Source: Anaerovorax odorimutans (lineage in GTDB: Bacteria > Bacillota > Clostridia > Peptostreptococcales > JAAYPU01). Taken from it: 64,000 bases of DNA. The position numbers and the translations under genes were made by a program. The stretch is taken from assembly GCA_016841185.1 (NCBI GenBank), contig JAENZQ010000001.1, positions 10,364-74,363 of the forward strand. Reading direction: 5' to 3'. Below, one piece after another: positions 5,829 to 29,702 of this stretch (positions are counted from its first letter, which is position 1; every line of letters begins with the position of its first letter). The notes under the pieces are model-generated. The model saw only the letters and a program-made list of their open reading frames with translations, had not been told where the DNA came from and ran no database searches.

Positions 5829-5854
5829 CTTTCCTCACTCCTGTTTTATTGCAT

Positions 5855-5950: not shown

Positions 5951-6025
5951 GCATAATTGACTTCTTTCTATGCACACTATAAAATATTTATATAATCAAA
6001 TTCTTTGAAAGCATTTCGCAAAGTA

Positions 6026-6057: not shown

Positions 6058-6129
6058 ACTAACAAATCCCACAGGCCTCTGTCGTTGACATGCACACTTA
6101 GTGGGCTTTTTGCATTTAAGGAGAAAAAT

Positions 6130-7047: not shown

Positions 7048-7130
7048 TAAATTCATACTAACAAAGCATATTAATAAATAATAGATCCTACGAGCTTATT
7101 TTAAGCGCAATACAGTAGGCCATTAAAAAT

Positions 7131-7164
7131 ACCCACTTAGGTAGTTCGTTCTATCTAAGTGGGT
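7131..7164. terminator. Bidirectional terminator-like hairpin between the convergent Abi and regulator genes
   Basis: ACCCACTTAG-14 nt-CTAAGTGGGT (10-bp perfect stem), A-rich on the left and T-rich on the right. Confidence 0.5.
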
Positions 7165-7198
7165 TTCCTATTTAACATGCAGCTAATGTTATCTTAAA

Positions 7199-7654: not shown

Positions 7655-7760
7655 ATCGCACCTCCAAAAAATCAAGATAAAAAACCTTGATCTTTGAAGC
7701 AGTGTGCTTTTTTGCGTTGCTTTGCAGTGCTTGTTTCCTTGTTCGTTATGTCTTCGTTCT

Positions 7761-8048
7761 TTATAGAAGGCCATGCTTTTCCAGAATAACCTTCACCTCA
7801 TCTACCGAATGGACAACCGCTGCCACTCCTCCTGCATTGAGGATTTTCCTTATAGTTGCTTCCTGCAGTTTTGTTGTCTTTCCCGATGGGGTTTTTATTT
7901 CAAAAGCTATAAACCGTCCATTTACACAGGCAATAATGTCTGGTATCCCCGCTGTCCCGTACATACCACCATGTTCCTTCCAACAGAAACACCCCGGTAC
8001 TGTCTTTAAGTACCGCAGTACTTTAGTCACAATACTTCTTTCAGACAT
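7761..8048 (-). CDS. VRR-NUC domain nuclease
   Basis: 95 aa. ..GIPDIIACVNGRFIAFEIKTPSGK..Q.. matches the PD..ExK core of VRR-NUC proteins. Confidence 0.8.
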   Translation of the reverse strand: MSERSIVTKVLRYLKTVPGCFCWKEHGGMYGTAGIPDIIACVNGRFIAFEIKTPSGKTTKLQEATIRKILNAGGVAAVVHSVDEVKVILEKHGLL

Positions 8049-8151
8049 AACCGCTCATCCTCCAAAAATGTTACCTTTTTCCCTTTTATAACCTCGTAAT
8101 ATCCAAGAAGGGCATCTCATAAATCCGCTTTCCAAGCGCTTTTCAGGATTC

Positions 8152-8338
8152 TGTTACCTTGTTACCTCTTTTTGGGGTAGGTGTATACACAAATATTTTT
8201 ATTTTTATATTTTTTAGTCTTAAAAAAGCAATGGTACTTTCGCGCGTATATATAAAGTTTAGGTAACAAAGGTAACATCGGTAACAAGTGGCTATTCATC
8301 AGCGTTTCTAGCGTTACCTTTTTGTTACCTTGTTACCT
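8152..8338. repeat. Iteron-like array: eight GTTACC/GGTAAC hexamers (2 + 3 inverted + 3) flanking an AT-rich core
   Basis: GTTACC at 8153, 8161, 8313, 8324, 8332. GGTAAC at 8262, 8271, 8280. Perfect 16-nt direct repeat TGTTACCTTGTTACCT at 8152-8167 and 8323-8338. AT-rich stretch at about 8191-8228. Confidence 0.6.
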
Positions 8339-8347
8339 TTTTCAATA

Positions 8348-10903
8348 CTAAAGAGGCTCAATATCTGTGATTTCAAAGCCGCTCACATCGCATCGCTCTT
8401 TCAGTATCGAGAAATCAAGAGCCCACGCTTTTTTTGTTTCATTCTCGAAACGCATCGTTTTATTGCTCTCTATAAAAAAGTCACTTTGCCTCAATTGCTT
8501 CAAAAACTGGTTATATGGAAGACATTCACCAGTGATTGCATAATCGCGTCTGTACTTGGTATAGCGGTCATATACATCACAGAAACGAATCCCGATAACC
8601 TTGCCATCTTTATCAAAAGTGTAGTCTTGATTCGGAGCCAGTTTCATCCGGGCCATGATTTCCAGGGTCTGTTCTACAATGCTCTTGTTATTGCTGCCGC
8701 CATCCAGCAAGTACTCCTGCACACCGTTTTGAAGATATCGAATACATGTCCCTTTGTTAATGGGAAATACTTCAGCCCACGTTACATTAAGGAATTCACA
8801 CAGTTTGTTTACTAGGCTCAGTCCGGCATAGCAACAGGCGAGATTATTGACGATACGAGATGGAAACTCATCAGATATCTCTGACTTTGCTTCCTCATAC
8901 CACTTCTCTGCCTCAGCAACCGATACTCTGAGTGCTATATCCAGCAGGCTCCGACCGAAGCTGCCAAGCAGATCCGCTTTTGCACACAGCTTATAAAATG
9001 CTTGTCTGTGGCTGGCTGGTTTTAAGTCCTTCTTGCTGAATAGCAATTCTATGCTCCGTTCTCTGATGGCCGCTTCATCCGGCGATTCCTCACCAGCTAC
9101 AATAATAGGTGCCAACAGTTCATAAGTAACAGCACTTTGATCCGCCCTACCGCGGACACCTTCATGGCCGTCATATGCATCTCGAAGATGGTTGTATAAG
9201 GCATTTAGCCTTAACTTATCTATCTTTGAAGGCTTGAACTCATCCATCAACTGCGGTATCAGATTCGATGATGCAGATTCCTTCATCAGCGTAAATGCAG
9301 TAACCTGTGTAGCCGCGCGGATTTTACTGCATGAAAATACCGGCAGAATAACCCGCTCCAATGTATTACTTTTTCCGCTGCCTTGTTCTCCGACAAGCAA
9401 TAAATGAGGAAACTTGATACCTGATTTTTTTAGATGCGGTTTGATAAAGCACCCGGCCACCCAGGCCATTACTGATACCGTTTTTATGGGTTCGTTATAG
9501 CTGAGAAGCCATTCACCAAGCATAATAAGCTGTTCCTTTGTCAATGGTTCATAGGTTAGGATATCGGTTGTTATGCTTTTATACTTATCAAGCTGCACGA
9601 TATCTTCGACAATGTTGCCTCCGGCTTCAATGGCACCATCCGTTGAAACATATACCATCCGCCCGCCATGCTCATAAATTCCAAGAGCCTTGACCCCTGT
9701 TTTCCTTACCCACTCCATTTCAGATATATAACCTTTCAGCAGTTCCAAATCTCCTTCTGAGCCAAAATAGCCTAAGGATATTGTCCGGCGGTTCAAGATA
9801 TTTTTAAACTTTTGGATGTTATTGAAGTCGGTAGTCATAAATGTCTGGCGGTATATTTCATCGCGGATTGTAATAAGATCAGCAGTCATCTGCGTTTCAT
9901 CTTCTGATACAATCATCTCCACCGGCTGAATGATAAAGTTTGTTATAGGATACACACTTTCGCCTCTGGTGCGGTAATACCTGCCCTCATGTTCAAAGAT
10001 AACTGACTCGCTTTCGCGGCTGTATACGTTCTCTGTGACTTCAATGGCCTTATCCAGTGTCTCCTGCCCATATGTTGCGCCGCTAGCATGATGTACCGTA
10101 TCCCACTTTTCCCGGAATAACCCGGAATTTCTAAACAGCCTGTCCATCTGCTCTTTGTTTTTGCCTGACCAGAAAGCCAGCATACAGCAAAGAGCAAGGT
10201 CGGCTTCGGACTGGCTCGGATACCCTGCTTCCTGCCATTTTCCTTCCCATAGCAGATTAAATTCCTTATGGTTTTCGGCTGTCTGGGCTTTCTCCAGAAT
10301 TTCTTCATCTGTAAGCGGCTCTAGCTTAACCCCCTTACGGTCTTTCTTGCTTTTCCCTCTCCGCTTTTTACTTTTGATATAATTCTCATGTATCCAGGCC
10401 AGTGCCCCGTTATCTTCAGTAATGTAATCAGGAGTCCTTGGCAGTCGCTCGCCAGTCATTGTGAAGTATCTGCTGTGGGCATACATTTCAACACCGGTTT
10501 TAGTGTTTTTATTGCCCTTGGCAGGCATCTCCCCTTTATAGAAAATATGAAGCCCAGTTCCTGAAGGGCTGATTTCCGTATATGACGGAAACCGCTCAAG
10601 GATATCCTTGGCGGTATCGTTTAATTCCCCAGTGTATTTGTCGCGGCAGTGATCTATGTCTATCCCTACTAAGCCTCCGCTTTTTGCGAATACAAAACCC
10701 AATCCGGTATAGAGATATTGTTCTTTTGCCGCAATCGCATCGTCAAGGGTCGACCAGTCGTTTGGGTTAGTGCTTGAGGCTTTTCTTCCGGTTAAGGGAT
10801 TGTATGGGATTTTACTGTCTTTCCCGTCCTTTGTGTTTGGTTCCAGGCGCCAGCAGATCCATTGCTTCTGGTCAGCCAGTTCTTTAGGAAATGAGATGCT
10901 CAT
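8348..10903 (-). CDS. Phage/plasmid primase-helicase (N-terminal Prim-Pol domain plus P-loop NTPase)
   Basis: N-terminal ..GLGFVFAKSGGLVGIDIDHC..SPSGTGLHIFY.. (bifunctional primase-polymerase motifs). Walker A ..LLLVGEQGSGKSN... 851 aa. Confidence 0.85.
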   Translation of the reverse strand: MSISFPKELADQKQWICWRLEPNTKDGKDSKIPYNPLTGRKASSTNPNDWSTLDDAIAAKEQYLYTGLGFVFAKSGGLVGIDIDHCRDKYTGELNDTAKDILERFPSYTEISPSGTGLHIFYKGEMPAKGNKNTKTGVEMYAHSRYFTMTGERLPRTPDYITEDNGALAWIHENYIKSKKRRGKSKKDRKGVKLEPLTDEEILEKAQTAENHKEFNLLWEGKWQEAGYPSQSEADLALCCMLAFWSGKNKEQMDRLFRNSGLFREKWDTVHHASGATYGQETLDKAIEVTENVYSRESESVIFEHEGRYYRTRGESVYPITNFIIQPVEMIVSEDETQMTADLITIRDEIYRQTFMTTDFNNIQKFKNILNRRTISLGYFGSEGDLELLKGYISEMEWVRKTGVKALGIYEHGGRMVYVSTDGAIEAGGNIVEDIVQLDKYKSITTDILTYEPLTKEQLIMLGEWLLSYNEPIKTVSVMAWVAGCFIKPHLKKSGIKFPHLLLVGEQGSGKSNTLERVILPVFSCSKIRAATQVTAFTLMKESASSNLIPQLMDEFKPSKIDKLRLNALYNHLRDAYDGHEGVRGRADQSAVTYELLAPIIVAGEESPDEAAIRERSIELLFSKKDLKPASHRQAFYKLCAKADLLGSFGRSLLDIALRVSVAEAEKWYEEAKSEISDEFPSRIVNNLACCYAGLSLVNKLCEFLNVTWAEVFPINKGTCIRYLQNGVQEYLLDGGSNNKSIVEQTLEIMARMKLAPNQDYTFDKDGKVIGIRFCDVYDRYTKYRRDYAITGECLPYNQFLKQLRQSDFFIESNKTMRFENETKKAWALDFSILKERCDVSGFEITDIEPL

Positions 10904-11325
10904 TTACACCGCACCTCCTCGCATCGTTCATTAAAATACCGGATCGGAATGCTGCGCTGCTTTGCCTTTTCAATCTCAATGGACATCCCTTTAGTAATTT
11001 TTCTGCCAAATACCCACACTTCTGAGCACTTTGACATCAATACCATGCCAAAGAACAAGCCCAGATTTCGCATTTGTTCATCATCGTCGTCCATAAACTG
11101 CGGAAACAAGAGGTGCGGAGCAATAGGTATGCAATTCCTGCTCACTGCAAATCGGCAGTACCCCTGAGCCTTACGGATATTACGTTCTATATCACCAGCA
11201 TATGGGCTGCAGATAAATACCATTGGTCTGTAAGGCGCTTTCCTGGCCTCCCGTTCAATCCGGAGCAGTGCTTCATAAGGTGTGGGGTCGTAATATCCTT
11301 CCGCGTTAAACTTGCTGATACTCAT
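10900..11325 (-). CDS. DUF4406 / nucleoside 2-deoxyribosyltransferase-like protein
   Basis: 141 aa. The pattern ..VFICSPYAG..(helix)..IAPHLLF..CSEVWVFG..ITKGMSIEIEKA.. resembles the DUF4406/NDT-like fold family. Assignment from memory. Confidence 0.4.
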   Translation of the reverse strand: MSISKFNAEGYYDPTPYEALLRIEREARKAPYRPMVFICSPYAGDIERNIRKAQGYCRFAVSRNCIPIAPHLLFPQFMDDDDEQMRNLGLFFGMVLMSKCSEVWVFGRKITKGMSIEIEKAKQRSIPIRYFNERCEEVRCK

Positions 11326-17142: not shown

Positions 17143-19062
17143 TTAACTTATCATTTCTTTATATGCCTTCGCACAAAGAGGGGAAAGTCCCAAGGCTTCC
17201 AAAACTTCATTGCATTCATATATTGAATGCCCTCTATACGAATGGATAAGCTTTTTATACGCCAATTGCTGTGGAGTGTTATTGAGAGTATATCCGGCAA
17301 GCTTTAATATCTCTTCACTGTATGTAGGGCTTAGCTCCAATCCTATGCAGATTGCCACAACGGTTTCTAAAGTTGGATTGTTAAGTTCATTATTTTTTAT
17401 TCTGTCATATGTTTTTCCTGAAAGCAAAGTCTTTTCTATAAAAACAACCTTATTGTAGCCTTTTCTTTTGATATGTCCACATACCGCTTGGGAAAATGTC
17501 TGGGTTGTGCGGCTCAAATGCTGACCTTCTTCGACGAATTCTTCGTGAAATTTCTTTAGCTCTTCTGAACGATTAAATACCTCCATATTATGCTTGTCCG
17601 GATTAAATGTCGGCACTCTGTTATAATCCGGTGTAGCTTTACGGAACATTATAGAATCGAGGTATACTACAATGTCCATTTTGGAGGCTTTATTTAACTT
17701 TAAATCAAACAGAAGGCAACATTCATCTACATGCAGTTTTGCATAGTCTGTAAGATCAAGGCTTCCATTTTCTAATCTTTTAATATACTTGGAGTCATTA
17801 ATTACATAATGACCGTCAACATAAATAAAATTGCCGCTGTCTATGATCTTTGCAAATTCCGGATTTGCATAGTATTCAAAAAAGGAATCGCTTAGGCTAA
17901 TACTGTATGTTTGGTTATTTTGCAATGAGTCTGCCTTAAATGAATAATTGCTGATAAAGTGGTCATTAACGTATGTATATACGCCTTCAGCTTCCTTATA
18001 TCCAAGGTCAAGCATCCTTATTTTGGCTGCTATCCTTGACACCTGGAAGAAGTCAGCTAATTCATACAAGACATTTTCCATTATATTTAACCTGTCGTGA
18101 GTACCAAAAAGGAGCTCATTCTTTTTAATTAGCTCCTCAATCTTTTTGATAGTCGTTGATTTAGGCATAAGGATGCGAGGTGCGATTCCGTTAGCATGCC
18201 ATTCCATCCAGTCTTCTGGCGTCCATTGCTTTTTGTATTTAGTTGTTTCGTTTACTCTACAGCTTATGAGCAAAGCATCGCTGTTATATGTCTTAACTAA
18301 CTCATGGTATTTTCTATGCTTATACCAGTGAACACATTCATGAATAATGGTATTGTTCATGCACCCTACGTTTCGCATGAAATAAACATTAGGATCCACG
18401 AGAATAGTTCCTCTTGAAACTTCCAAAGGCTTATATGTTCTTTCATTTCTGTCGTAATATTCTATCGTACAATCTCCAAAAACTATTTGACCAAATATAG
18501 TGAAATGCTTTGTTAACTGGATTTCCTTAACCTTAAGCCCCATTCTTTTCGCTACTTCATCTACCGGAATAGGCACAGGAGTACTTAATGCTTCTGGGAA
18601 AAATTCACTTAGAAACTCGGTAGCAACATCGTCAAACTGTTCCTTTTCTATAATTGGCACTAAATACTCAGACAGTCGGCCTAATTTGCTTTCTCTGTAC
18701 TTGTTGTATATTGAAACAGAGTTGATTTGAAAATTCTGAATTCCGTCATCAAGATCAGCCTTACAGGAGATACGGAACCATTGTTCTATACCGTCATTTT
18801 CGCGATTCCTTCGCACTGTTTCTGCTATTTCAACTTCGGCTGAAACAATTACATCAAATAAAATACTATTGCCTGGTGAATCGGTTATGTCAATCGTTAT
18901 AATGTCAAAATCGGATAAAGCCGCTTCATCCGGTGATTGCACGCGGTATGAGTTGGATTCCAGCTTATCCGGGTTGTCCTCAATATACTCGGACAATTCG
19001 TCAAAGAGTTCATTGTAATACATATTTGCAATAACATCTCTGAACGAGCTGACGCTTGCCAT
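17143..19062 (-). CDS. Large ImmA/IrrE-family (M78-like) zinc metallopeptidase domain protein, 639 aa
   Basis: Start set to ATG at 19062 (GGGAGG 6 nt upstream; the track start is a TTG). HExxH motif ..NTIIHECVHWYKH.. in the middle of the protein, with about 230 aa N-terminal and about 340 aa C-terminal regions that I cannot assign. Divergent from an XRE HTH gene. Confidence 0.7.
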   Translation of the reverse strand: MASVSSFRDVIANMYYNELFDELSEYIEDNPDKLESNSYRVQSPDEAALSDFDIITIDITDSPGNSILFDVIVSAEVEIAETVRRNRENDGIEQWFRISCKADLDDGIQNFQINSVSIYNKYRESKLGRLSEYLVPIIEKEQFDDVATEFLSEFFPEALSTPVPIPVDEVAKRMGLKVKEIQLTKHFTIFGQIVFGDCTIEYYDRNERTYKPLEVSRGTILVDPNVYFMRNVGCMNNTIIHECVHWYKHRKYHELVKTYNSDALLISCRVNETTKYKKQWTPEDWMEWHANGIAPRILMPKSTTIKKIEELIKKNELLFGTHDRLNIMENVLYELADFFQVSRIAAKIRMLDLGYKEAEGVYTYVNDHFISNYSFKADSLQNNQTYSISLSDSFFEYYANPEFAKIIDSGNFIYVDGHYVINDSKYIKRLENGSLDLTDYAKLHVDECCLLFDLKLNKASKMDIVVYLDSIMFRKATPDYNRVPTFNPDKHNMEVFNRSEELKKFHEEFVEEGQHLSRTTQTFSQAVCGHIKRKGYNKVVFIEKTLLSGKTYDRIKNNELNNPTLETVVAICIGLELSPTYSEEILKLAGYTLNNTPQQLAYKKLIHSYRGHSIYECNEVLEALGLSPLCAKAYKEMIS

Positions 19063-19226
19063 ACCGTACCTCCCTAATAACATTTCATCATGCAGACCAG
19101 ATATTTCCTTATGTAAATTATAGCATAAATTGCGAAAAACACAATAATTAATTTGCGAACTCAAATTTTTGTTGTGTTTTAACCAGCTTTATGATATTCT
19201 TTATATTACAAGGCGAGGTGACAATT

Positions 19227-19442
19227 ATGGCCGTTAGCTATAAAAAACTATGGAAACTCTTAATTGATAAAGATATGAAAAAGAAAGATTTAAGAGAAGC
19301 GGCTGGTATTAGTACATCTTCTATGGCAAAACTCGGCAAAAACGAAAACGTAACTACTGATGTGCTTGTGAAGATTTGTAAGGCCTTAAAGTGTGATATT
19401 TCAGATATTATGGAGATTGAGCCGGATGACAAAGATAAATAG
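19227..19442 (+). CDS. Small XRE-family helix-turn-helix protein (71 aa)
   Basis: ATG at 19227 with GAGGTG 6 nt upstream. MAVSYKKLWKLLIDKDMKKKDLREAAGISTSSMAKLGKNENVTTDVLVKICKALKCDISDIMEI is a canonical Cro/C1-type HTH. Confidence 0.85.
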   Translation: MAVSYKKLWKLLIDKDMKKKDLREAAGISTSSMAKLGKNENVTTDVLVKICKALKCDISDIMEIEPDDKDK

Positions 19443-19479
19443 AGCTATGCTTATGTAAATACATAAAGGAGTGCGTATT

Positions 19480-22400
19480 ATGACTGCAAATCAGAAAAAA
19501 CTAATTAACCTGTTAAAAGAAATGTTCCAGTTCGATCAGGCTGACCTCGATTTTGGAATTTACCGCATCATGCGGATGAAACGGGAAGAGATCAGTCGTT
19601 TTATTGAAGAAGACCTTCCCGCGCAAATAACCAATGAGCTACGCGAACTTGTTTCGGTATCCGCCGAAGTTGATATGGCAGAAATTGACAAGCAGGTAAC
19701 AGACGCAAAATCTTTGAATATAAGCGAGACTGCAAAAGCTTCCATTATTGCTGAGCTTGAAGCAAAGAAAAAAGCTCTTGCAGAAAAGATTGACATATCA
19801 TCAGTAGAGGCAGATGTATACAACCATCTGACAAATTTCTTTTCCCGTTATTATGATGAAGGCGATTTTATCTCCCAGCGCCGCTACAAGGACGGTGCTT
19901 ATGCCATCCCTTATGAGGGCGAGGAAGTAAAGCTATACTGGGCAAACGCTGACCAGTATTATATAAAAACAAGCGAGTATTTCAAGGATTATACATTTAA
20001 GACCGCTTATGGGGATACTGTGCGCTTTAAACTGGTTGAAGCCGAAACTGAACAGGACAACAACAAGGCGAATGAAAAAAGGTTCTTTCAGCTCCATACA
20101 GAAAAACCGTTTGAATTAGTCGACGGAATTTTTACGATTTACATGGAATATAAAAACGGTGGAAAGAAAAATCAAGATGAATGCATCGGCGAAATCGTCA
20201 AGGCTTTTTCCGAGGCACAGGCTCGATATACACAGTTCTCCGCATTGTTAGCGACAAGTGATGGCAAAACGCTGCTTGAGCGGCAACTCAAACGGTATAC
20301 TGCGCGCAACACATTTGATTATTTCATCCATAAGGATTTGGGTAAATTCCTGCGTCGAGAACTGGACTTTTATATAAAAAACGATGTTATTTTCCTTGAC
20401 GATATTGATGAACAAGACGAAGCTAAGACAAAAGAGTATCTGACCAAGGCTAAAGTTATCCGCAAGATTGCTCACAAGATAATAGCTTTCCTTGCCCAGA
20501 TTGAGAATTTTCAAAAGAAGCTGTACCTGAAAAAGAAATTTGTGGTTGAAACAAATTACTGCATTACGCTTGACCGCATCCCGGAGGAATTGTATCCCGA
20601 AATTGCCGCAAACGACGATCAGCGTGAGGAATGGGTGCGCCTTTTTGCCATTGACGAAATCGAAGGCGATTTAACCCAGCCCACATACTCTGTGCCGCTG
20701 ACCGTAGAATTTTTAAAGGCAAACCCTTACCTTGTGCTGGATACGGCATTTTTCAGTGCGGAGTTTAAAGATAAACTTATCGCAGGCGTAGACAATTTGG
20801 ATGAAAACCTTGATGGGTTATTAATACATAGTGAGAATTTTCAAGCCCTTCAATTATTACAGACAAGGTATAAAGGACAAATCAAATGCATTTATATCGA
20901 TCCGCCTTATAACGCAAAATCAAGTGAGATATTATATAAAAATAATTATAAGCATTCCTCTTGGTTAAGTCTTATGTCAGACAGAATAAAAGCCTCTCAA
21001 ACACTTTTTAACGATAAACCTGTTTTTATTTGTGCAATTGATGAGGTTGAACAAGAACGTTTAGGTATATTACTTTCCCAATTATTCAATGAAAATTATT
21101 TTGGCAAAACCGCTGTAAGCATAGTTCATAATCCATCAGGACAGCAGGGAGATAATTTTTCTTATACCCACGAATTTGCATACTTCATTTATAATATTCC
21201 AGGAAGAAGCATTGCTGAGCAACTTAGGGAAGATCCAAATGAATGGGATAAGAGAAATTTTAGAGACGTTACGGGCGACGAATCCTTGCGAACAGCAGCT
21301 AAAACCTGTTTTTATCCTATCTTAATCAAAGATGGGACTATCATCGGTTTTGGGGATGTTTGTAATGATGATTATCATCCAGAAGTTAATGTATTTAGAG
21401 ATGATGGAGTTATCGAAGTATATCCGATTGATCCTCAAGGTATAGAAAGGAAATGGAGATTTGGAAGAGATACCGTAGAAACAATTAAAGATCAACTATT
21501 AGTCAACTATATAAACAATCGTAAAGTTTATGATATCCAGCGTTTAAAGAAGACGTTTAATTATAAATCATGTTGGCATGCCTCCATCTATTCGGCTAAC
21601 AATTATGGAACTCAACCATTAAATCAAATGTTTGGATATCAACCATTTTCATATCCAAAGTCAATATTCACTGTTAAAGATTGTATTTACGCTGGCCTTA
21701 ACGAGCAAAAAGCAGCCACAGTTTTAGATTTTTTCGCCGGCTCCGGCACCACTGCTCATGCAGTTATCAATCTTAACCGAGAAGATGGCGGAAGACGTAA
21801 ATATCTCCTTGTAGAAATGGGTGAATACTTTGACACCGTAACAAAACCACGTATTCAAAAAGTAATTTATTCTATGGATACCGAAACACAAAAAGGCTGG
21901 CGTGATGGTAAACCTGTTTCCCGCAAAGGTTCATCCCACGCATTCAAGTACCTGCGTCTCGAGTCTTATGAGGATACATTGAACAATATCGTACTCAGAG
22001 GCGGACAATACGATATGCTGGGCAGTGCCCGGGAGGGTTATCTCCTTTCCTATATGCTTGACGCTGAAGCTGAAGGAAGCAGCTGCCTGCTAAATATTGA
22101 CAAACTGGACAAGCCCTTTGACTATAAAATGAACATTACTCGTAATCTGGAGAGCCGCGAGCAGCCAGTCGACCTTGTTGAGACCTTTAACTACCTGATA
22201 GGGCTTACTGTTGCACGCAGCTATGCTCTCACAACCTTTGACGCCGAATTCATCATAGGCGAGTACGGTTCAGTTTCCGCTACCCTTAAAAATGGCAACA
22301 CCTATAAATTCAAGTCGGTTGAGGGCACTCTTCCGAACGGTGACAAAGCGCTTGTTATATGGCGCGAAATGACCGGCGATACTGTTAAAGACAACGCAGT

Positions 22401-22566
22401 TTTAGACGCATACTTCCGGCAGACGTTTGCCGATGCGCGTAGTTACAAGAAAATCTTTGTTAATTGCGACAATAACCTTCAGAACCTGCGCACAGAAAAC
22501 GAAAATTGGCGTGTTATCCTCATCGATGAGGAAATGAAAAAGCGCATATTTGAATACAGTGAGTAA
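19480..22566 (+). CDS. Type III Mod-like beta-class N6/N4 DNA methyltransferase with a long N-terminal extension (1028 aa)
   Basis: ATG at 19480 (AAAGGAG upstream). Motif IV IYIDPPYN (DPPY at 20899-20910) preceded by ..LLIHSENFQALQLL.., as in EcoP1I-type Mod. Motif I FAGSGTT at 21733-21753. About 470 residues precede DPPY. Confidence 0.85.
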   Translation: MTANQKKLINLLKEMFQFDQADLDFGIYRIMRMKREEISRFIEEDLPAQITNELRELVSVSAEVDMAEIDKQVTDAKSLNISETAKASIIAELEAKKKALAEKIDISSVEADVYNHLTNFFSRYYDEGDFISQRRYKDGAYAIPYEGEEVKLYWANADQYYIKTSEYFKDYTFKTAYGDTVRFKLVEAETEQDNNKANEKRFFQLHTEKPFELVDGIFTIYMEYKNGGKKNQDECIGEIVKAFSEAQARYTQFSALLATSDGKTLLERQLKRYTARNTFDYFIHKDLGKFLRRELDFYIKNDVIFLDDIDEQDEAKTKEYLTKAKVIRKIAHKIIAFLAQIENFQKKLYLKKKFVVETNYCITLDRIPEELYPEIAANDDQREEWVRLFAIDEIEGDLTQPTYSVPLTVEFLKANPYLVLDTAFFSAEFKDKLIAGVDNLDENLDGLLIHSENFQALQLLQTRYKGQIKCIYIDPPYNAKSSEILYKNNYKHSSWLSLMSDRIKASQTLFNDKPVFICAIDEVEQERLGILLSQLFNENYFGKTAVSIVHNPSGQQGDNFSYTHEFAYFIYNIPGRSIAEQLREDPNEWDKRNFRDVTGDESLRTAAKTCFYPILIKDGTIIGFGDVCNDDYHPEVNVFRDDGVIEVYPIDPQGIERKWRFGRDTVETIKDQLLVNYINNRKVYDIQRLKKTFNYKSCWHASIYSANNYGTQPLNQMFGYQPFSYPKSIFTVKDCIYAGLNEQKAATVLDFFAGSGTTAHAVINLNREDGGRRKYLLVEMGEYFDTVTKPRIQKVIYSMDTETQKGWRDGKPVSRKGSSHAFKYLRLESYEDTLNNIVLRGGQYDMLGSAREGYLLSYMLDAEAEGSSCLLNIDKLDKPFDYKMNITRNLESREQPVDLVETFNYLIGLTVARSYALTTFDAEFIIGEYGSVSATLKNGNTYKFKSVEGTLPNGDKALVIWREMTGDTVKDNAVLDAYFRQTFADARSYKKIFVNCDNNLQNLRTENENWRVILIDEEMKKRIFEYSE

Positions 22567-22578
22567 GGAGGCAGCATT

Positions 22579-25500
22579 ATGGCAAGAAGAAATAGGCAAC
22601 GTGCTAATGAGCCGCAATTAAAATTTTATCAAAAACTTCTGCTGAACCGCTACCTGCTCAGTCAGTTTAGTGTATCAAGTTTTAAAGAATTGGCTGCAGA
22701 ACTTAAGAAACCTGCCTTTGAAGAAATTGATAACGAAAGCGTTACCGGTTTTTACAAACAAATCGTTTCTCAACTCGGCACGAAATGCAAAATCCCTCAG
22801 GAAAAGCTGGCGGAATATGATTTGAATATAGTGGCCCATTTAAAGAAGATTAATGAAAGGCGGGATGAACCGCTTTCCCTCAAATACTTTCAATACCTCT
22901 CGCTGCTTTTTGTTGAGTACTACCTTGACAACTACTTCAATAACCGGCAAGGCTTACTTGACGGTCTAAATGAGCTTGTTGCCGATTTCAACGAGCAGTA
23001 CCTCAATGATGCAGTTGAGTTGTATGAAGAAAGTGACTTGAACAAAATTGCAATCTGGAACGCCACCGGTAGCGGCAAAACCCTGATAATGCACATTAAC
23101 TACCATCAGTACATTCATTATTCAAACTGTAAATTGCCGGACGGCGCTACATATATCCTTCTAACGCCAAAGGAAGGCTTATCCCTCCAGCATATTGAGG
23201 AATTTGAGGTATCTGGAATACCAGCTAAAATATATGATAAGTCAGCAAGCCGCTGGATGCGTTATGAAGGCGAAATTAGCGTTCTCGAGAATACAAAACT
23301 GGGAGAAAAGGATCAAGATACAATTGTATCTGTTAAGCGGTTTGGAAACCAGAATGTTGTTTTTGTGGATGAAGGCCACAGGGGGTCATCATCCGGTAAG
23401 GAAGGAAAATGGCAGAAATTTCGCGATGAGCTTTGCTCAGACGGTTTTTCGTTCGAATATTCCGCAACCTTTGGGCAGGCTATAGCTGCTTCCTCAGACA
23501 AATCACTTGCCAAACGTTACCAGAAGTGCATTATTTTTGATTATTCATACAAATACTTTTATCAAGACGGATATGGCAAAGACTATAACATCCTTAACCT
23601 TGCCAACGACAGCGATGAAGCAAAACGAAAGCTTTATCTGACAGCTTGCCTAATTGCGTTTTATCAACAAAAAAAGATATATTTGACATGCAAAAACGAA
23701 TTTGAACGCTTCAATATTGAAAATCCGCTGTTTGTTTTTGTCGGAGCTAGTGTAAATGCCGTCCGTACTGAGCGTGGACGCAAAGTTTCCGACGTTGTGG
23801 ATATCCTGCTGTTTTTCAAGGATTTTATTTCTAATACCAGTGAATCGGTTGCAAATATACAACAGTTACTATCCGGAAACACAGGATTGCTTGACAATCA
23901 TAATCGCGACATTTTTAGAAATGCTTTCCCATACTTGGAAAGCGAAGGGTTGTCCGCCGCTGATCTTTATAATGATGTTTTGAAAACAGTATTTAACTGT
24001 ACTTCCATTGGATCCATGCTCCATGTTGAGAATCTGCGCGGAATTAGCGGTGAAATTAGTTTACGTCTTGGCGAGAACGAACCCTTTGGTGTTATTAATG
24101 TCGGGGATGACAGTGCTTTATTAAAGCTATGTTCAGAAAACGGCTTCCATACAGATACCATATCATTCTCAGAGTCGCTGTTTCATAAAATCACAAAGCC
24201 GGATTCCACAATCAATATATTGATTGGCTCAAAAAAATTCACCGAGGGCTGGAACTGCTGGCGTGTATCGACAATGGGGCTTATGAATGTTGGCCGTAGC
24301 GAGGGAAGCGAAATTATTCAGCTTTTTGGACGAGGCGTACGTCTGAAAGGCTATTCACTGTCGCTGAAACGCAGCGCTTTTTATAAAAAGGAAAATCCAG
24401 AAATTTCTGTACCGAAGTATATAAGCATTTTGGAAACACTGAATATTTTCGGCGTCCGCGCTGATTATATGCATCAGTTTAAGGAATTCCTTGAAGCCGA
24501 AGGTGTTCCGCCCGAAAAAGGCCAACCGATAGTATTAACAATGCCGGTTATCCGGAACAAACTCTATAAAAAAGATAACCTGTACACATTGCGTGTCAAG
24601 GGCGGGCTTGATTATAGAAAGCATGCTAAAAAACCTTTTTTGAGATATGTTGAGGGTATCGTTGTTACGCTGGATTGTTATGCAAAGGTGCAGTTTGAAA
24701 CATCAAAAACACATTCATCAAGTGAGGTGACAAAAAATCAAACGACACTCAAACCCGAACATTTAGCTTTCCTAAACTATAATCGCATCTATTTCGAAAT
24801 ACTGCAGTATAAGAATAAAAAAGCGAGATACAATTTTAATATTAATAAAAATGATATATATGATTTGCTGAACAATCCTGAATATAACACCTCATGGTAC
24901 AAATTGCTCATTCCTGAAGATGAGCTGAAAATACGTAACTATGAAGACTACAGACGGTTTGAAAAGATAGCTGTTGCCTTGCTAATAAAATATTTCGACA
25001 GGCTCTATTACTTGGAGCGCAATCGCTGGGAATCGATGGTTGTTGGTTATGAGCTTGTCGCTATGAGTGATGAGGGTGATAATTTCCTGAACGAAGAAAA
25101 GGACGAATATACCATAAGCATCAGCAATACTGATGAAAATGAAGCCATGATTACCTGGCTTAAACGAATAATAGAAAAAGTAAATGAGGCGAAAGCGAAA
25201 AAACAAATCCTGGACTTTATTGAACAACGTGCTGACATGGAAGTTATCGGATTTCCAGCTCACTTATATGATCCTCTGCTTTATCTGGCAAAGAATAATG
25301 TGGAAATCGTTGTATCACCGGTGGCTTTAAACGAAAGCGAAGCAAAATTCATAAAAGATTTACGCCAACACCTTAAAGACAATGAAGCATTGTTTTCAGA
25401 TAAAGAACTTTACATTATCCGAAACAGGAGCAAAAAAGGAATTGGATTTTTTGAAGATAGCGGTTTTTATCCGGATTTCATTATGTGGCTTATTGTCAAT

Positions 25501-25779
25501 GGAAAACAATATATAACATTCATTGACCCACATGGTCTTAGGCAAGAAAGCATTACTTCAAGCAAAATCAGGCTGCACAAAAGCATTAAAACCAGTATTC
25601 AAAGCAAGCTTGCAGAACCATCGGTAGTGCTTAATTCCTTTATTTTGTCACCTACAAAATATGCAGAACTTCCGGACAGAAGTACCCCTAAAGCAGAGTG
25701 GATAGAAAATAATGTTCTTTTTATGGAGGACGTCAATTACATTCAGAGACTTTTTGACACAATTAAAAAACAAGCTTAG
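22579..25779 (+). CDS. Res-like SF2 helicase (ResIII/DEAH type) with C-terminal PD-(D/E)xK-like region (1066 aa)
   Basis: GGAGG RBS, 12 nt after the methyltransferase stop. Walker A ..NATGSGKT.. (23068-23082), motif II ..VFVDEGHRGSS.. (23368-23379), motif III SATFG, motif VI ..QLFGRGVRL... C-terminal ..GFYPDFIMW..(17 aa)..FIDPHG... Confidence 0.8.
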   Translation: MARRNRQRANEPQLKFYQKLLLNRYLLSQFSVSSFKELAAELKKPAFEEIDNESVTGFYKQIVSQLGTKCKIPQEKLAEYDLNIVAHLKKINERRDEPLSLKYFQYLSLLFVEYYLDNYFNNRQGLLDGLNELVADFNEQYLNDAVELYEESDLNKIAIWNATGSGKTLIMHINYHQYIHYSNCKLPDGATYILLTPKEGLSLQHIEEFEVSGIPAKIYDKSASRWMRYEGEISVLENTKLGEKDQDTIVSVKRFGNQNVVFVDEGHRGSSSGKEGKWQKFRDELCSDGFSFEYSATFGQAIAASSDKSLAKRYQKCIIFDYSYKYFYQDGYGKDYNILNLANDSDEAKRKLYLTACLIAFYQQKKIYLTCKNEFERFNIENPLFVFVGASVNAVRTERGRKVSDVVDILLFFKDFISNTSESVANIQQLLSGNTGLLDNHNRDIFRNAFPYLESEGLSAADLYNDVLKTVFNCTSIGSMLHVENLRGISGEISLRLGENEPFGVINVGDDSALLKLCSENGFHTDTISFSESLFHKITKPDSTINILIGSKKFTEGWNCWRVSTMGLMNVGRSEGSEIIQLFGRGVRLKGYSLSLKRSAFYKKENPEISVPKYISILETLNIFGVRADYMHQFKEFLEAEGVPPEKGQPIVLTMPVIRNKLYKKDNLYTLRVKGGLDYRKHAKKPFLRYVEGIVVTLDCYAKVQFETSKTHSSSEVTKNQTTLKPEHLAFLNYNRIYFEILQYKNKKARYNFNINKNDIYDLLNNPEYNTSWYKLLIPEDELKIRNYEDYRRFEKIAVALLIKYFDRLYYLERNRWESMVVGYELVAMSDEGDNFLNEEKDEYTISISNTDENEAMITWLKRIIEKVNEAKAKKQILDFIEQRADMEVIGFPAHLYDPLLYLAKNNVEIVVSPVALNESEAKFIKDLRQHLKDNEALFSDKELYIIRNRSKKGIGFFEDSGFYPDFIMWLIVNGKQYITFIDPHGLRQESITSSKIRLHKSIKTSIQSKLAEPSVVLNSFILSPTKYAELPDRSTPKAEWIENNVLFMEDVNYIQRLFDTIKKQA

Positions 25780-25781
25780 AA

Positions 25782-25826
25782 AGGCAGGCTGCTCATATAA
25801 TCATTTAGCTTGTCTTTGTTTTTCTG
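25782..25826 (+). terminator. Weak terminator-like hairpin after the helicase gene
   Basis: AGGCAGGCU-16 nt-AGCUUGUCU (9 bp including two G-U pairs that only work on the plus-strand RNA), followed by UUGUUUUUCUG. The long loop lowers confidence. Confidence 0.35.
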
Positions 25827-25891
25827 TATTAGGCTGTTGTTAATTTTTTTAACGGCTAAGTCTCTGCTAAATGATAGAAGGGGGGGTTATT

Positions 25892-27106
25892 ATGTATCAG
25901 TTAACAATTGAAGACATAGAGCGCAGTAATAGCCTTGCACTTCAACCGGGTCGAACTGCTTTTATTGATGAGTGCGGGAACTTCGGATTTGACTTTGAAG
26001 CTAAGGGAACTTCTGAAGCAGGTGGCCCTTCGCTCTATTATATTGTTTGCGCCGTTGTTGTAAAAAACGAGAATATTAGTGCTCTTGAAATTGAAGCTAA
26101 TAAAATTCGCCAAAATAATGGTTTTCAAACCGGAGAAATGAAATCTAGCTTAATAGGCAATAACCATAAGCGTAGAATAAAGATACTCACTGAATTGCTA
26201 AATCTTGATTTTTCACTGGTTATGCTTATTGCAGATAAACAAAAATTTTATAGGGATTCGCCTCTTACTAATTATAGGGAGTCATTCATAAAGTACCTTC
26301 ATCAAAAACTGTATAATGAAATGTACGCGGCATATCCAAAACTTAAAATCGTTGAGGATGAATATGGATTATCAGAGTTTCAAAAGGGGTATCGTGAATA
26401 TGTTTGTGCTAACAGACCACAACTAAACCTACTTAACGAATATGATTTTGATTATGTCAACAGTAAACATAGTCCGATAGTACAAATTGCAGATATTATT
26501 GCAGGTTCAACCATGCAGCACCTTTTAGACAATAAGGCTCCAAATGTCTTGAAAATATTCCAAGGCAAAATTAGGGGGCTTGTCAATTTTCCAAGCACAT
26601 ATTCTTCCTTCCTTGCAGGAATTAAGGCAGATAAAAGCTTTGACGAAAATATATATGTGTTAGCCGACCATTGTGCAACTCAATATATAGACTCTCATAT
26701 AGATACCGATGAAACAGATACAAGGATGCGTGTTTTGTTCTTAAAGCATTTGCTATGGGTAGTTCGTAATATTAATCCCCGTAAATATATTTCATCGGGC
26801 GAAATTATCAAGGTTCTATCCGACCTTTCTGATAGTAAGGTTCGTCGTGACTATTTATACCGAAGAATAATTGCTCCTTTGCGCGATGCTGGCGTAATTA
26901 TAGCCAGTTGTTCTCATGGCTATAAAATACCTACGTGTATTGATGATATCTATACGTATGTAAACCAAACAAATGGCATTGTTGGCCCTATGCTCAATCG
27001 TGTTGAAAAATGCAGACAACTTATTCTTTCTCAAACTGACGGTTCTCTTGATATTTTTGACGATCCTGCCCTAAAAAAATACAAGCGTTATTTCGGAGAT
27101 TATTAA
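25892..27106 (+). CDS. DUF3800 domain protein with winged-helix-like C-terminal region (404 aa)
   Basis: ATG at 25892 (GGGGGG 7 nt upstream). N-terminal ..TAFIDECGNFGF.. and later ..VQIADIIAGS.. match the two conserved DUF3800 motifs as I remember them. The C-terminus ..SSGEIIKVLSDLSDSKVRRDYLYRRIIAPLRDAGVIIASCSHGYKIP.. looks like a wHTH. Confidence 0.7.
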   Translation: MYQLTIEDIERSNSLALQPGRTAFIDECGNFGFDFEAKGTSEAGGPSLYYIVCAVVVKNENISALEIEANKIRQNNGFQTGEMKSSLIGNNHKRRIKILTELLNLDFSLVMLIADKQKFYRDSPLTNYRESFIKYLHQKLYNEMYAAYPKLKIVEDEYGLSEFQKGYREYVCANRPQLNLLNEYDFDYVNSKHSPIVQIADIIAGSTMQHLLDNKAPNVLKIFQGKIRGLVNFPSTYSSFLAGIKADKSFDENIYVLADHCATQYIDSHIDTDETDTRMRVLFLKHLLWVVRNINPRKYISSGEIIKVLSDLSDSKVRRDYLYRRIIAPLRDAGVIIASCSHGYKIPTCIDDIYTYVNQTNGIVGPMLNRVEKCRQLILSQTDGSLDIFDDPALKKYKRYFGDY

Positions 27107-27414
27107 CGGAACTTGCTGGACAATTTTTCTATTGTTTTTTATCATTTTTGCCTTATAATGAAGGAAAATGTCTAGCCGCTAAAATAAATACTATGAATTT
27201 TTTCTTCCAGGTAACACACATCTATCCTGTATTCTCAACCCCCCGTAAAAAAGGCGGTTATCTAATCTGGTAACTCAACTATAAATTTTCAAGGTTTTTG
27301 ATATGTTCCCACAAACAATAAAATAAAGGCTTCCTGACATTACCACAACTGGTAGATCGATTTTGAGAAAAGTTAAATGTCTGGAAACCCTTTATTTACA
27401 AGCTTTTTAGTTCT

Positions 27415-28779
27415 TCATTTCTTAACCCTTGACATCAATACTACCGTCTCCACGTGCACCGTATACGGAAACATATCCACCGGCTGTACTTCTTTTGTCA
27501 TATATCCATTTGCTTCAAGGTATTTCAGGTCGCGGGCAAGGGTAGAGGGGTTGCAGGAGACATAGACGATCCTTTCCGGCTGCATTTCAGTCATGGTAGT
27601 CAAAAGTTTTTCATCGCAGCCTTTTCGGGGCGGGTCTACTACTACCACGTCTGCTTTATAACCTTTTTTATATAGTTCCGGAACGACTTCTTCAGCTTTT
27701 CCAACGTGAAATTCGGTATTCTCGATATGATTAATCTCTGCATTTCTTTGAGCATCTTCCACTGCCTGCTGCACGGTTTCTACTCCTATGACTTTTTCGG
27801 CCTTCTTGGCAAGAAATAAGGAAATGGTGCCGATGCCGCAGTATAAATCAAATACGGTTTCATTGCCTGAAAGTTGTGCGTATTCCAAGGCTTTGTTATA
27901 AAGCTGTTCCATTTGTACAGGATTCACCTGATAGAATGATAACGGTGATATTTGAAATCGAACATCGGCGATACTGTCTATTATGTAACCTTTGCCGTGT
28001 AGCGTTATGTTTTTATCCCCCAGTATCACATTTGATTTCTTTGTATTGATGTTCTGCACCAATGTTGTGATTTCAGGCAGTTTTTTATTTATATTTTCAA
28101 TCATTTCATCTTTATTAGGTAGATGAGTTCCGTTAACAACAAGGATGAGCATGAATTCTTTGCTGTTTACACCTATTCTTGTGACGATATGTCTTAATAA
28201 TCCTTTTCCTGTCTTTTCGTTATATATAGAGAGCTTGAATTTCTTTATAATATGTTTTATTTCTTTAATAATCTTATCGTTTATCTCATGCTGAATCATA
28301 CAGGTATCGCATTGTATGATGTCGTGGCTTTTCTTCCGATAAAAGCCTATTTCTATTTGTCCATTTTTATCTGTCAGGGGAAATTGGGCTTTATTGCGGT
28401 ATCTTTCAGGAGAGTCCATTCCAATGACATCATGGATTTGTACCTCATGCAGGCCGCCGATTCGCCGGAGGTTGTCCGATACTATTTTTTTCTTTATTTC
28501 CAGTTGTTTTTTATAAGAAATGTTTTGTATCTGGCAACCGCCGCATTGATTGAATATCGTACATTGGGGATTGACTCTGAAAGGAGAATATTCAAGATAT
28601 TCCACTACTTTTCCTATGCCATAATTTTTCTTTAAAGTTATGACTTCAATCTTTACTTTATCGCCGATAACCGTTTCTTCCACAAATATTGTGAATCCGT
28701 CTATTTTTCCGATTCCTTCTCCGCTGTGTCCCATGTCGATGATTTCTATTTCGTATGTTTGATTAAACTTTATGTCCAT
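27415..28779 (-). CDS. rlmD: 23S rRNA (uracil-C5)-methyltransferase, RumA/RlmD (TrmA) family
   Basis: Start set to ATG at 28779 (AGGAG RBS). N-terminal TRAM-like domain, Fe-S Cys cluster ..CTIFNQCGGCQIQN.., SAM motif ..VFDLYCGIGTISL.., C-terminal ..YVSCNPSTLARDL... Confidence 0.9.
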   Translation of the reverse strand: MDIKFNQTYEIEIIDMGHSGEGIGKIDGFTIFVEETVIGDKVKIEVITLKKNYGIGKVVEYLEYSPFRVNPQCTIFNQCGGCQIQNISYKKQLEIKKKIVSDNLRRIGGLHEVQIHDVIGMDSPERYRNKAQFPLTDKNGQIEIGFYRKKSHDIIQCDTCMIQHEINDKIIKEIKHIIKKFKLSIYNEKTGKGLLRHIVTRIGVNSKEFMLILVVNGTHLPNKDEMIENINKKLPEITTLVQNINTKKSNVILGDKNITLHGKGYIIDSIADVRFQISPLSFYQVNPVQMEQLYNKALEYAQLSGNETVFDLYCGIGTISLFLAKKAEKVIGVETVQQAVEDAQRNAEINHIENTEFHVGKAEEVVPELYKKGYKADVVVVDPPRKGCDEKLLTTMTEMQPERIVYVSCNPSTLARDLKYLEANGYMTKEVQPVDMFPYTVHVETVVLMSRVKK

Positions 28780-28955
28780 TTTATTCTCCTGTTCAGTTAT
28801 TGGTTTCCGGTGACTACAGGTTGCTCTGCTGCGCTCATAAAGACAAGAAAACAAATCGCCGCGTCGGGAGGTTTTCGCGATGACAAGCAAATGATTTCTG
28901 CTCTGCGTTCGCAATGGCAACGAAAAAGATCATGGGCAGGCACAGAGACCGCCCC

Positions 28956-29702
28956 CTACAGATCGAATATTTCTCTTAGATTGACGCTTAGCCCTTCAAA
29001 ATAATAAGACTGGAGTGTATCATGCCCCTTGTAGGTAGAAAATTCTTCGATTTTACGATCCTCAAATTTGTAAACGAGCATTATCTTTTTCTGGCGATCG
29101 GCAATCCAGAATTCTTTGACACCTGATAACATATAGGTATTTAATTTGTCCACCATGTCTTTGGATCTTGTACTGGGTGATAGAATCTCTACAACAAGAG
29201 TAGGCGTCCCCATATAACGTCCTTTTTCGTTGACTGTACCCTCTGTATCGCAGGCAATTAGCAAATCAGGCTGCATGACATCCGGATCTTTAAAGTCCGG
29301 CTTAAAAAAATGTACATCGAAGGGGGCATAAAAGACTTTGCACTTTTTGTCTTTCAAATATTCTGCAAAGATTAAGTGGAGCTTTCCAGAAATCTCCTGA
29401 TGGAAAGTACTTGGGGAAGACAAAAGGATAATTTCTCCATTGATGTATTCCATTCTTAACTCGGTTTTTTCATATATTTCCATGAACTCTTCATAGGATA
29501 CCTTTTTGCCTTGGTATTGATAGTCCAGCGCCTCCTCTTTGACTGTTAAATATCGTTCAATATCTGTTATGTATGGCGAAAGTCTTACAGCCTTTTTTCC
29601 GTTCTTTGTTATGACCACTTCATGGTTGTCAATGACGTAGTCCAGGTACTTACCCAAATTTTTCTTGAATTCCGTAGCTGTAATGGTTTTCTTTAAATTC
29701 AT
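28956..29702 (-). CDS. Fusion protein: Phd/YefM-type antitoxin-like N-terminal domain plus Uma2 (DUF820) PD-(D/E)xK endonuclease-like domain
   Basis: N-terminus MNLKKTITATEFKKNLGKYLDYVIDNHEVVITKNGKKAVRLSPY (Phd/YefM pattern). C-terminal part ..EYINGEIILLSSPSTFHQEISG..QPDLLIACD..LVVEILSPSTRSKD..EFWIAD.. (Uma2 pattern). Confidence 0.65.
   Translation of the reverse strand: MNLKKTITATEFKKNLGKYLDYVIDNHEVVITKNGKKAVRLSPYITDIERYLTVKEEALDYQYQGKKVSYEEFMEIYEKTELRMEYINGEIILLSSPSTFHQEISGKLHLIFAEYLKDKKCKVFYAPFDVHFFKPDFKDPDVMQPDLLIACDTEGTVNEKGRYMGTPTLVVEILSPSTRSKDMVDKLNTYMLSGVKEFWIADRQKKIMLVYKFEDRKIEEFSTYKGHDTLQSYYFEGLSVNLREIFDL

Follow-up and report, generated by a model that had tools for sequence, protein, structure and literature searches.

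A Type III-like Mod–Res cassette and a DUF3800 gene, probably independent cargo modules, at the end of a prophage in Anaerovorax odorimutans

Introduction

Do four neighboring genes at the end of a prophage form one defense system, or do they belong to separate units that share a location? The question is raised by a locus in a 64,000-nucleotide stretch of an Anaerovorax odorimutans assembly (GCA_016841185.1, contig JAENZQ010000001.1, positions 10,364–74,363), called the window here; coordinates without a locus number are positions in it. The list of open reading frames (ORFs) and the sequence place four genes on the plus strand between 19227 and 27106: a small helix-turn-helix (HTH) regulator (19227–19442; 71 aa; Pfam HTH_26), a DNA methyltransferase, Mod (19480–22566; 1028 aa; Pfam N6_N4_Mtase), a helicase-nuclease, Res (22579–25779; 1066 aa; Pfam ResIII/DEAD/SWI2_SNF2), and a protein with a DUF3800 domain and a winged-helix-like region (25892–27106; 404 aa; Pfam PF12686).

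The original prediction, made from the sequence alone, had described these genes as co-oriented with gaps of 37 nt (HTH/Mod), 12 nt (Mod/Res) and 112 nt (Res/DUF3800), and had read the combination as one unnamed four-gene system. The gene calls and the spacing are exact, and Pfam confirmed the domains. The single system did not survive comparison with other loci: PADLOC calls the Mod–Res pair Type III, a DUF3800 relative follows Res in none of 36 viral loci, and DUF3800 has no constant partner across 39 loci. The locus is better read as two independent cargo modules – HTH-Mod-Res and DUF3800 – that probably lie one behind the other at that end of a temperate phage which carries its attachment site; the phage would be integrated at the 3’ end of a rumA gene.

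Results and discussion

The long Mod–Res pair

The Mod gene starts at an ATG preceded by an AAAGGAG ribosome-binding site, and members of its family begin at the same methionine. The N6_N4_Mtase domain (residues 471–786, Pfam) has the motif order of the beta class – DPPY at 474, ca. 270 residues containing the target-recognition region, then FxGxG at 752 – and the core can be aligned with those of EcoP15I Mod, Mbo45V and a Mod from H. pylori, all of them Type III Mods of solved structure. The PADLOC profile MTase_III (PDLC03646) matches most of the length (E = 3.5e-192), with the best stretch at residues 246–1008. Residues 1–440 have no match in Pfam or the PDB. This 440-aa domain is present in 2,756 clusters at 50% identity, nearly always at the N-terminus of proteins of 1000–1130 aa. 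The N-terminal extension pointed out in the original prediction is therefore real, but its distribution indicates that the extended Mod is the normal architecture of its family and no peculiarity of this locus.

Res has a ResIII/DEAD domain at residues 142–299 (Pfam) and the motifs of superfamily 2 (SF2) helicases – GSGKT at 164, DEGH at 264, SAT at 295 and QxxGRGxR at 581 – which are invariant across 30 homologues. Its C-terminal region carries a nuclease-like motif, E921...P965-D966...(D/E)983-P-H985...K996, in which position 985 is His in 29 of the 30 homologues and Lys in the other one. The same prediction had called this motif non-canonical, as it is; across the homologues, however, PD-(D/E)xH appears as the family-wide form rather than a local oddity. 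In the AlphaFold2 (AF2) model (mean confidence, pLDDT, 78), the motif residues lie on an alpha-beta-beta-beta-alpha-beta unit, the topology of the PD-(D/E)xK core. The Pfam family RE_endonuc does not match Res, while the PADLOC profile REase_III (PDLC03654) matches over most of its length (E = 5e-204). Neither phmmer nor a family profile found any match to Res in the PDB, and hhalign against the classical Res of locus L005 (ResIII + RE_endonuc) gave a probability of 0.5%. Foldseek with the Res model returned generic SF2 translocases, including EcoR124I HsdR and EcoP15I Res (4zcf_C, the longest alignment, 790 columns). We infer that Res is an SF2 ATPase/translocase with a C-terminal PD-(D/E)xK-like nuclease domain in which His takes the place of the usual Lys; the activity is a prediction from motifs and model.

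The Res family is large, with more than 6,516 homologues at E <= 1e-10, and the long Mod–Res family ranges from Bacillota to Enterobacterial IncF plasmids, plus an archaeal plasmid. Its neighborhoods were compared in 41 viral loci from IMG/VR found with the Res profile, in which ORFs were labeled with phmmer and DUF3800 was also sought with a hidden Markov model (HMM). Mod is directly 5’ of Res in 33 of the 41, which is wherever the sequence reaches, and likewise in L007–L012. The gene 5’ of Mod is less constant. Among the 23 viral loci with at least 2.5 kb on that side, it encodes a DrmD-like SNF2 protein in 15, a small HTH protein in three and a UvrD-like helicase in one. On Enterobacterial IncF plasmids the order is HTH-SNF2-Mod-Res, within the leading region and near psiB (E. 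coli plasmid NZ_CP018955.1, 29496–39248), and Priestia plasmids have UvrD-like-Mod-Res. The plasmid SNF2 protein resembles DrmD of DISARM (PADLOC DrmD, 2.5e-196), yet it falls under the NCBIfam DrmD_b cut-off (648 vs 950 bits).

On the other side of the pair, no DUF3800 relative was found 3’ of Res in any of the 36 viral loci whose sequence extends 1.3 kb or more on that side, even with the HMM at E <= 1. DUF3800 is also absent from L007–L012 and from the E. coli and Priestia plasmid Mod–Res loci, and HTH-Mod-Res without DUF3800 is found in L007/L008 and L061/L094. The gene after Res in metagenome loci varies: a PHP/AAA fragment, an opposite-strand gene for a RES-domain protein, or small ORFs. 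The third gene of L007 was considered as a diverged DUF3800 and rejected; it is an unrelated PHP/AAA fragment. A Mod-Res-DUF3800 triad syntenic across unrelated genomes, which the original prediction proposed to look for, is not what these loci contain, and the linkage was not found outside close relatives. Given the PADLOC matches, the size of the family, the constant pairing and the HTH-Mod-Res loci that lack DUF3800, Mod–Res appears to be a self-sufficient and recognized unit.

Recognized does not mean characterized. PADLOC gives the operon only MTase_III and REase_III, NCBIfam has no specific model for the pair, and the E. coli/Klebsiella IncF plasmid homologues match the same two PADLOC profiles over their entire length (1173 and 1651 bits). 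Both profiles, PDLC03646 and PDLC03654, presumably were built from clustered Type III entries in REBASE, many of which are predictions only. Current tools would label the locus Type III, a profile match that would amount to a catalogue entry and not to characterization. The grounds for the term ‘Type III-like’ are the architecture, the order of the genes, the core of Mod and the matches in profile libraries; close homology of Res is not among them. A literature search on the long Mod–Res subfamily, its plasmid accession numbers and the SNF2-Mod-Res trio found no relevant paper. Thus the pair is classed as Type III by the tools and its linkage to DUF3800 is not conserved, but a prior characterization of the subfamily did not come to light. 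Neither this family nor the DUF3800-winged-helix family appears to have been studied biochemically.

The DUF3800-winged-helix protein

The DUF3800 gene starts at an ATG preceded by a GGGGGGG ribosome-binding site, and its homologues start MYQ. The Pfam DUF3800 match (E = 1.4e-11; 45.7 bits vs a cut-off of 21) covers residues 30–214, counted from the longer ORF that starts at 25871. Conserved residues are D26-E27, D115, E155 and Q198-x-x-D201, which include the DE and QxxD motifs. The family of ca. 400-aa proteins is conserved over its full length; there are 348 matches, and the best 120 share 55–94% identity. The AF2 model (mean pLDDT 78) has an RNase HII-like domain at the N-terminus, continues through a helical linker and a winged-helix-like region, and ends in a long helix. 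Foldseek matched the model to RNase HII (1eke_B, 2dff, 1uax_A; probability 1.0, target-normalized TM-score ca. 0.5) and to a viral DUF3800 protein. The DNA-binding-like tail of the original prediction corresponds to residues ca. 300–345, a helix-helix-hairpin unit with a winged-helix look in the AF2 model and weak Foldseek matches. A transposase or insertion-sequence element was considered and judged unlikely, as the gene is single-copy in each of the 36 genomes hit and its product has an RNase HII-like fold.

PADLOC and NCBIfam have no match to this protein. The literature treats DUF3800 as an RNase H-like domain whose function has yet to be tested (PMC7736814, PMC10910872, PMC13594972, 10.64898/2026.08.25.746378, PMC5737381). 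It is the effector of retron type VII (PMC7736814), it adjoins Cas12a2/a3 as a TPR-DUF3800 protein (PMC10910872, PMC13594972), and Csx32 of the Cas13 CASK loci is a DUF3800 protein (10.64898/2026.08.25.746378). Eleven RNA motifs, DUF3800-I to -XI, are associated with the domain (PMC5737381); Rfam found none of them in the whole window at the gathering score, and nothing at E <= 10 in 19000–27500. An experimentally defined role for DUF3800, which the original prediction also did not know of, was not found in a literature search, nor was a link between DUF3800 and restriction-modification.

Relatives of the DUF3800-winged-helix protein were examined in 39 genome loci, where neighbors were labeled by phmmer with a few references and by pooled Pfam counts. 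The 116 upstream neighbors match 129 Pfam families, among them ResIII (5 members), Eco57I (4), N6_Mtase (2) and HSDR_N (2). A constant partner was looked for and rejected: all-against-all clustering of the neighbors finds none, and the recurring upstream ORFs of ca. 540 aa are mutually non-homologous. The contexts are diverse. DUF3800 follows an HTH gene and a Type I system and precedes rumA in L001 and L016 (partially in L002 and L013); follows a classical Type III system in L005, L018 and L045; directly follows an HTH gene, with McrBC downstream, in L026; and comes after an HTH gene, a BrxP/PbeC-like gene and a sigma-like gene in L040. It is solitary in L003, L050 and L052 and on plasmids of Bacteroidota and Leptospira, and lies beside tyrosine integrases in L022, L029 and L041. 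The order seen in the window recurs in L049 (Res 92% and DUF3800 94% identical) and L058 (Res 72%, DUF3800 81%). No relatives were found in 50,697 phage genomes or in IMG/VR. Full-length conservation, the lack of a recurrent partner, the solitary loci and the varied neighbors all suggest an autonomous gene.

Some other genes near DUF3800 deserve mention. Sigma-70-like proteins with r2/r4 regions, one of them also MzaA-like, are encoded within a few genes of DUF3800 in L040 (3110–4231), L005 (12663–14285), L027 (5486–7294) and L032 (3770–5440). A reverse transcriptase (RVT_1; PADLOC RT_UG17/Drt8-like) is among the genes just 5’ of DUF3800 in two of the loci L013–L048, which recalls retron type VII. 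Locus L005 (Caproiciproducens CP142860.1) has, at 1–11200, the order SNF2-DUF4391-...-classical Type III Mod/Res-DUF4357-DUF3800, and ca. 9 kb further on (20061–21200) a second HTH_26 gene and a long Mod of the window’s family, in a dense defense island.

The boundary between Res and DUF3800

A terminator-like hairpin with a 12-bp stem and a U-run lies directly 3’ of Res on the plus strand (25782–25823; -12.7 kcal/mol, z = -2.7). In L058 the equivalent hairpin is more stable (-19.1 kcal/mol, z = -3.3), and both arms of its stem carry compensatory changes. Apart from the hairpin, the 112-nt gap as a whole folds no better than shuffled sequence (z = -0.98). DUF3800 is probably transcribed separately from Res.

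The HTH regulator and its promoter

The HTH protein matches Pfam HTH_26 with E = 2.9e-22. Its homologues, 54–75% identical, lead quite varied cassettes: long Mod–Res in L008, L058 and L005b, Type I in L001 and L016, a defense-like cassette in L040, and DUF3800 directly in L026. An HTH gene also heads the SNF2-Mod-Res operon of the E. coli plasmid. By this recurrent position the HTH protein can be read as the controller (C-protein-like) leader of the cassette and as a candidate regulator. An inverted repeat, AAAACACAATAA-N21-TTGTTGTGTTTT, is found at 19136–19180 in the divergent promoter region, and a promoter-like site is present at 19179–19207, upstream of the HTH gene. The repeat, a candidate operator of the HTH protein, is conserved only in part: L001 and L016 keep its right arm and the adjacent -10-like TGATAT element 5’ of their HTH genes.

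At the rumA site, an HTH gene and DUF3800 bracket different cassettes. Specific co-evolution of the two was considered and rejected: HTH proteins of loci without DUF3800 (L008, 75%; L005b, 63%) are equally close to that of the window. Since they are equally similar, the bracket is unlike what a functional HTH-DUF3800 pair would leave. It looks like the product of cassette exchange at a cargo hotspot, as far as these comparisons go.

The end of the prophage

The original prediction had placed the genes at the end of a mobile element, a typical site of cargo, and this was borne out: a prophage lies on the left, and conserved terminal repeats and rumA on the right. The left flank encodes a small terminase, a DNA polymerase, a primase, an Ant anti-repressor, an SNF2 helicase and two ParB-methyltransferase fusions, all on the minus strand. 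To the right, 308 nt past DUF3800, a host gene for a rumA-like RNA (uracil-5-)-methyltransferase (27415–28782; Pfam tRNA_U5-meth_tr + TRAM) lies on the opposite (minus) strand with its 3’ end abutting the element; a homologue holds the same position in L001.

Between DUF3800 and rumA, a conserved block of ca. 70 nt contains two 20-bp direct repeats, ATCTAnnCTGnnnnCTCAAC, on the plus strand (27220–27239 and 27260–27279). The block is kept 3’ of DUF3800 homologues in L001 (repeats at 8520–8577), L002 (7124–7433), L013 (2785–2842) and L049 (5635–5653). It is followed by rumA again in L001, and by a third copy of the repeat and then a faint serine-recombinase fragment in L002. The block is probably an attachment-site arm, or a set of recombinase-binding sites, at the rumA integration site. 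If it is read as an attachment arm, DUF3800 would be the last gene of the prophage. No near-identical DNA was found in phage and plasmid collections, and the named relatives closest to the window are Acetivibrio proteins from metagenome assembly, with generic names.

Alternative explanations

Several observations weigh against two independent modules, or against the Type III label on the first of them. The exact order of four genes in L049 and L058 means that the block is stable over some divergence. About 6–7 of the 39 genome loci have co-oriented restriction-modification genes directly 5’ of DUF3800, several with gaps of 39–60 nt or overlapping; this adjacency (ca. one locus in six) exceeds random gene order and leaves room for some functional tie. 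The hairpin after Res was not called by a consensus terminator scan, and with its long loop read-through is possible and it may be leaky. Res has no detectable sequence similarity to EcoP15I or to classical Res, and ‘Type III’ rests on architecture, PADLOC profiles and a generic fold match. Most Mod–Res relatives carry an SNF2 gene that the locus in the window lacks, and the two-gene form might be incomplete or differ. Finally, the scans of genome and viral loci use short peptide patterns and sample mostly relatives from Bacillota.

Four other explanations were weighed against these data. The least probable has the four genes forming one new four-component defense system, with DUF3800 as its obligate effector or subunit. 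The genes are co-oriented and tightly spaced and keep their order in L049 and L058, and DUF3800 domains are accessory or effector parts elsewhere (PMC7736814, PMC10910872, PMC13594972, 10.64898/2026.08.25.746378). Yet DUF3800 is downstream of Res in 0 of 36 viral loci, Mod–Res occurs with other third genes or with none, the DUF3800-winged-helix gene is found alone or with unrelated cassettes, and a conserved hairpin parts it from Res. The SNF2 gene suggests something else, namely that long Mod–Res is part of a DISARM-like pathway that normally needs a DrmD-like SNF2 protein, so that the form in the window is partial or different. The SNF2 gene is directly 5’ of Mod in 15 of the 23 viral loci and on the Enterobacterial IncF plasmids, Res is unlike classical Res in sequence, and Mod has an extra conserved domain of 440 aa. 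This is unlikely: intact, full-length HTH-Mod-Res without SNF2 recurs across lineages (window, L008, L058, L061, L094), which speaks for a functional two-gene core; Res keeps its helicase and nuclease motifs intact and invariant; DrmA, DrmB and DrmC are absent; and the plasmid SNF2 protein scores under the DrmD cut-off.

The remaining two explanations give DUF3800 a different task. It could be a second-line guard that mobile elements place again and again behind restriction-modification of any type, a latent RNase H-like nuclease that fires when restriction fails or is blocked; PrrC, embedded in the EcoprrI Type I locus, is a comparable guard. At least three restriction-modification types that are unrelated to one another (long Type III-like, Type I, classical Type III) have DUF3800 directly 3’ of them, after a short gap or overlapping. 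In close relatives at the rumA site, HTH and DUF3800 stay and the restriction-modification cassette is exchanged, and the RNase H-type acidic motif of DUF3800 is intact. Against this, ca. 80% of the sampled loci have no restriction-modification gene nearby, the solitary copies are as conserved as the linked ones, a shared location in defense islands and at element ends gives the same adjacency (McrBC in L026, matches to reverse transcriptases of the DRT kind, integrases), and no physical or regulatory coupling was seen between DUF3800 and the restriction-modification genes. A guard is a decidedly unlikely role on this balance; if it were true, it would be the first defined role for DUF3800 and a new guard-type pairing with restriction-modification. 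The gene might instead serve the mobile element itself, in the control of integration or excision, in replication or in RNA processing, and its position at the attachment site would reflect that. In the window, L001, L002, L013 and L049, no further gene separates DUF3800 from the terminal repeats; tyrosine integrases adjoin it in L022/L029/L041 and possibly a serine recombinase in L002, and an RNase H-like fold is combined with a DNA-binding-like region. Service to the element is nevertheless very improbable – many copies lie amid ordinary chromosomal genes with no integrase or signature of an element (L003, L050), searches of the 50,697 phage genomes and IMG/VR found no relatives, the 36 genomes hit carry a single copy each, and the fold is matched best by RNase HII, not by DDE transposases or integrases.

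A model of the two modules

Two separate cargo modules remain the preferred reading. In the first, a single promoter 5’ of the HTH gene would drive HTH, Mod and Res. The inverted repeat in this promoter is the probable binding site of the HTH protein, which would thereby time or limit expression. Controller proteins do so in other restriction-modification systems. Mod has the domain and motifs of a beta-class N6-adenine/N4-cytosine methyltransferase and would methylate a specific target site; Res would move along DNA, driven by ATP, and cut unmodified DNA with its C-terminal PD-(D/E)xH domain. The N-terminal 440 aa of Mod might serve in assembly with Res, or with the SNF2 partner of most relatives, which is a guess. 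The second module would be DUF3800 as an autonomous single gene, whose protein joins an RNase HII-like nuclease domain and a winged-helix-like region. Its most likely role is to act on nucleic acid by itself, against invaders or for the benefit of the element, and not as a subunit of the restriction enzyme.

The single locus matters little – a prophage with a restriction-modification system to which tools already give the label Type III, and one further cargo gene. Its families matter more. The long Mod/Res family comprises thousands of clusters catalogued as Type III, and one biochemical study of it would annotate very many genomes. The DUF3800-winged-helix protein is a well-conserved single-gene unit at the edges of elements and in defense islands, and a simple test case for DUF3800 function.

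Neighboring features

The gene that diverges from the HTH gene (17143–19062, minus strand, in an ORF of 17143–19164) encodes an ImmA/M78-like protein of 673 aa (phrog_4031; weak capP-like PADLOC match), whose true start is probably M35, at 19062. It is the first gene of the leftward prophage operon, a part of the context and outside the cassette. ImmA/M78-like proteins of 627–673 aa are the divergent neighbors of HTH-Mod-Res in three phage-like loci (the window, L058 and L062); a homologue 33% identical to that of the window has the same divergent position in L058 (227–2110) and L062.

Farther into the prophage, a low-GC gene (32.5%) on the opposite, plus strand (6085–7047) matches phrog_2158, ‘abortive infection resistance protein’ (1.7e-61), and is probably a further moron or defense cargo. 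The two ParB-like/DNA-methyltransferase fusions (1718–2971 and 2977–4275, minus strand; phrog_498, phrog_620) are adjacent paralogs. On the host side, the gene at 28956–29702 (minus strand) encodes the N-terminus of a Phd/YefM antitoxin fused to Uma2, a putative restriction endonuclease (PADLOC candidate PDC-S03, 8.6e-58). Between 39861 and 40496 on the minus strand, Rfam identified four c-di-GMP-I riboswitch aptamers in two tandem pairs (39861–39944, 39983–40066, 40303–40384 and 40415–40496), all well over the gathering score. Four consecutive aptamers of this class are an unusual density.

Comparison with named systems

The first module has most in common with Type III systems such as EcoP15I and EcoP1I: mod precedes res, here by 12 nt, Mod has a beta-class core, in Res an SF2 ATPase at the N-terminus is followed by a predicted C-terminal domain of PD-(D/E)xK type, and EcoP15I Res is among its best fold matches. 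The module differs in a Mod of ca. 1.6 times the length, extended by 440 N-terminal aa that the solved Mods lack, in a Res that has no detectable similarity to EcoP15I or classical Res and whose nuclease motif ends in His rather than Lys, and in the small HTH gene at its head. That gene, of XRE type, and the inverted repeat in its promoter recall restriction-modification systems controlled by C proteins; the HTH in the window, however, is of the HTH_26 family, which also leads Type I, other defense-like and DUF3800-only cassettes. Class 1 DISARM is approached by most Mod–Res relatives, in that a DrmD-like SNF2 gene precedes them. The operon in the window has no such gene, the nearby phage SNF2 gene being on the other strand in the replication module, and PADLOC found no DrmA, DrmB (DUF1998) or DrmC.

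The DUF3800 protein resembles those of other immune loci in its Pfam domain, in its DE and QxxD motifs and in its fold, which is of the RNase H/RNase HII kind. The locus in the window has neither a reverse transcriptase nor a CRISPR array, a TPR domain or a kinase, and its DUF3800 family is a single gene with a winged-helix-like C-terminal half of its own. As for retron type VII, Pfam found no reverse transcriptase domain in the four proteins or the flanking genes, and there was no Rfam match. Like the DUF3800 RNA motifs (PMC5737381), the non-coding stretches of 112 nt and 308 nt flank a DUF3800 gene; unlike them, the upstream stretch resembles a plain terminator and the downstream block resembles recombination-site repeats. 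Rather than a new four-gene system, the locus is a further member of a Type III-like subfamily that is already in the catalogues and of the DUF3800 family.

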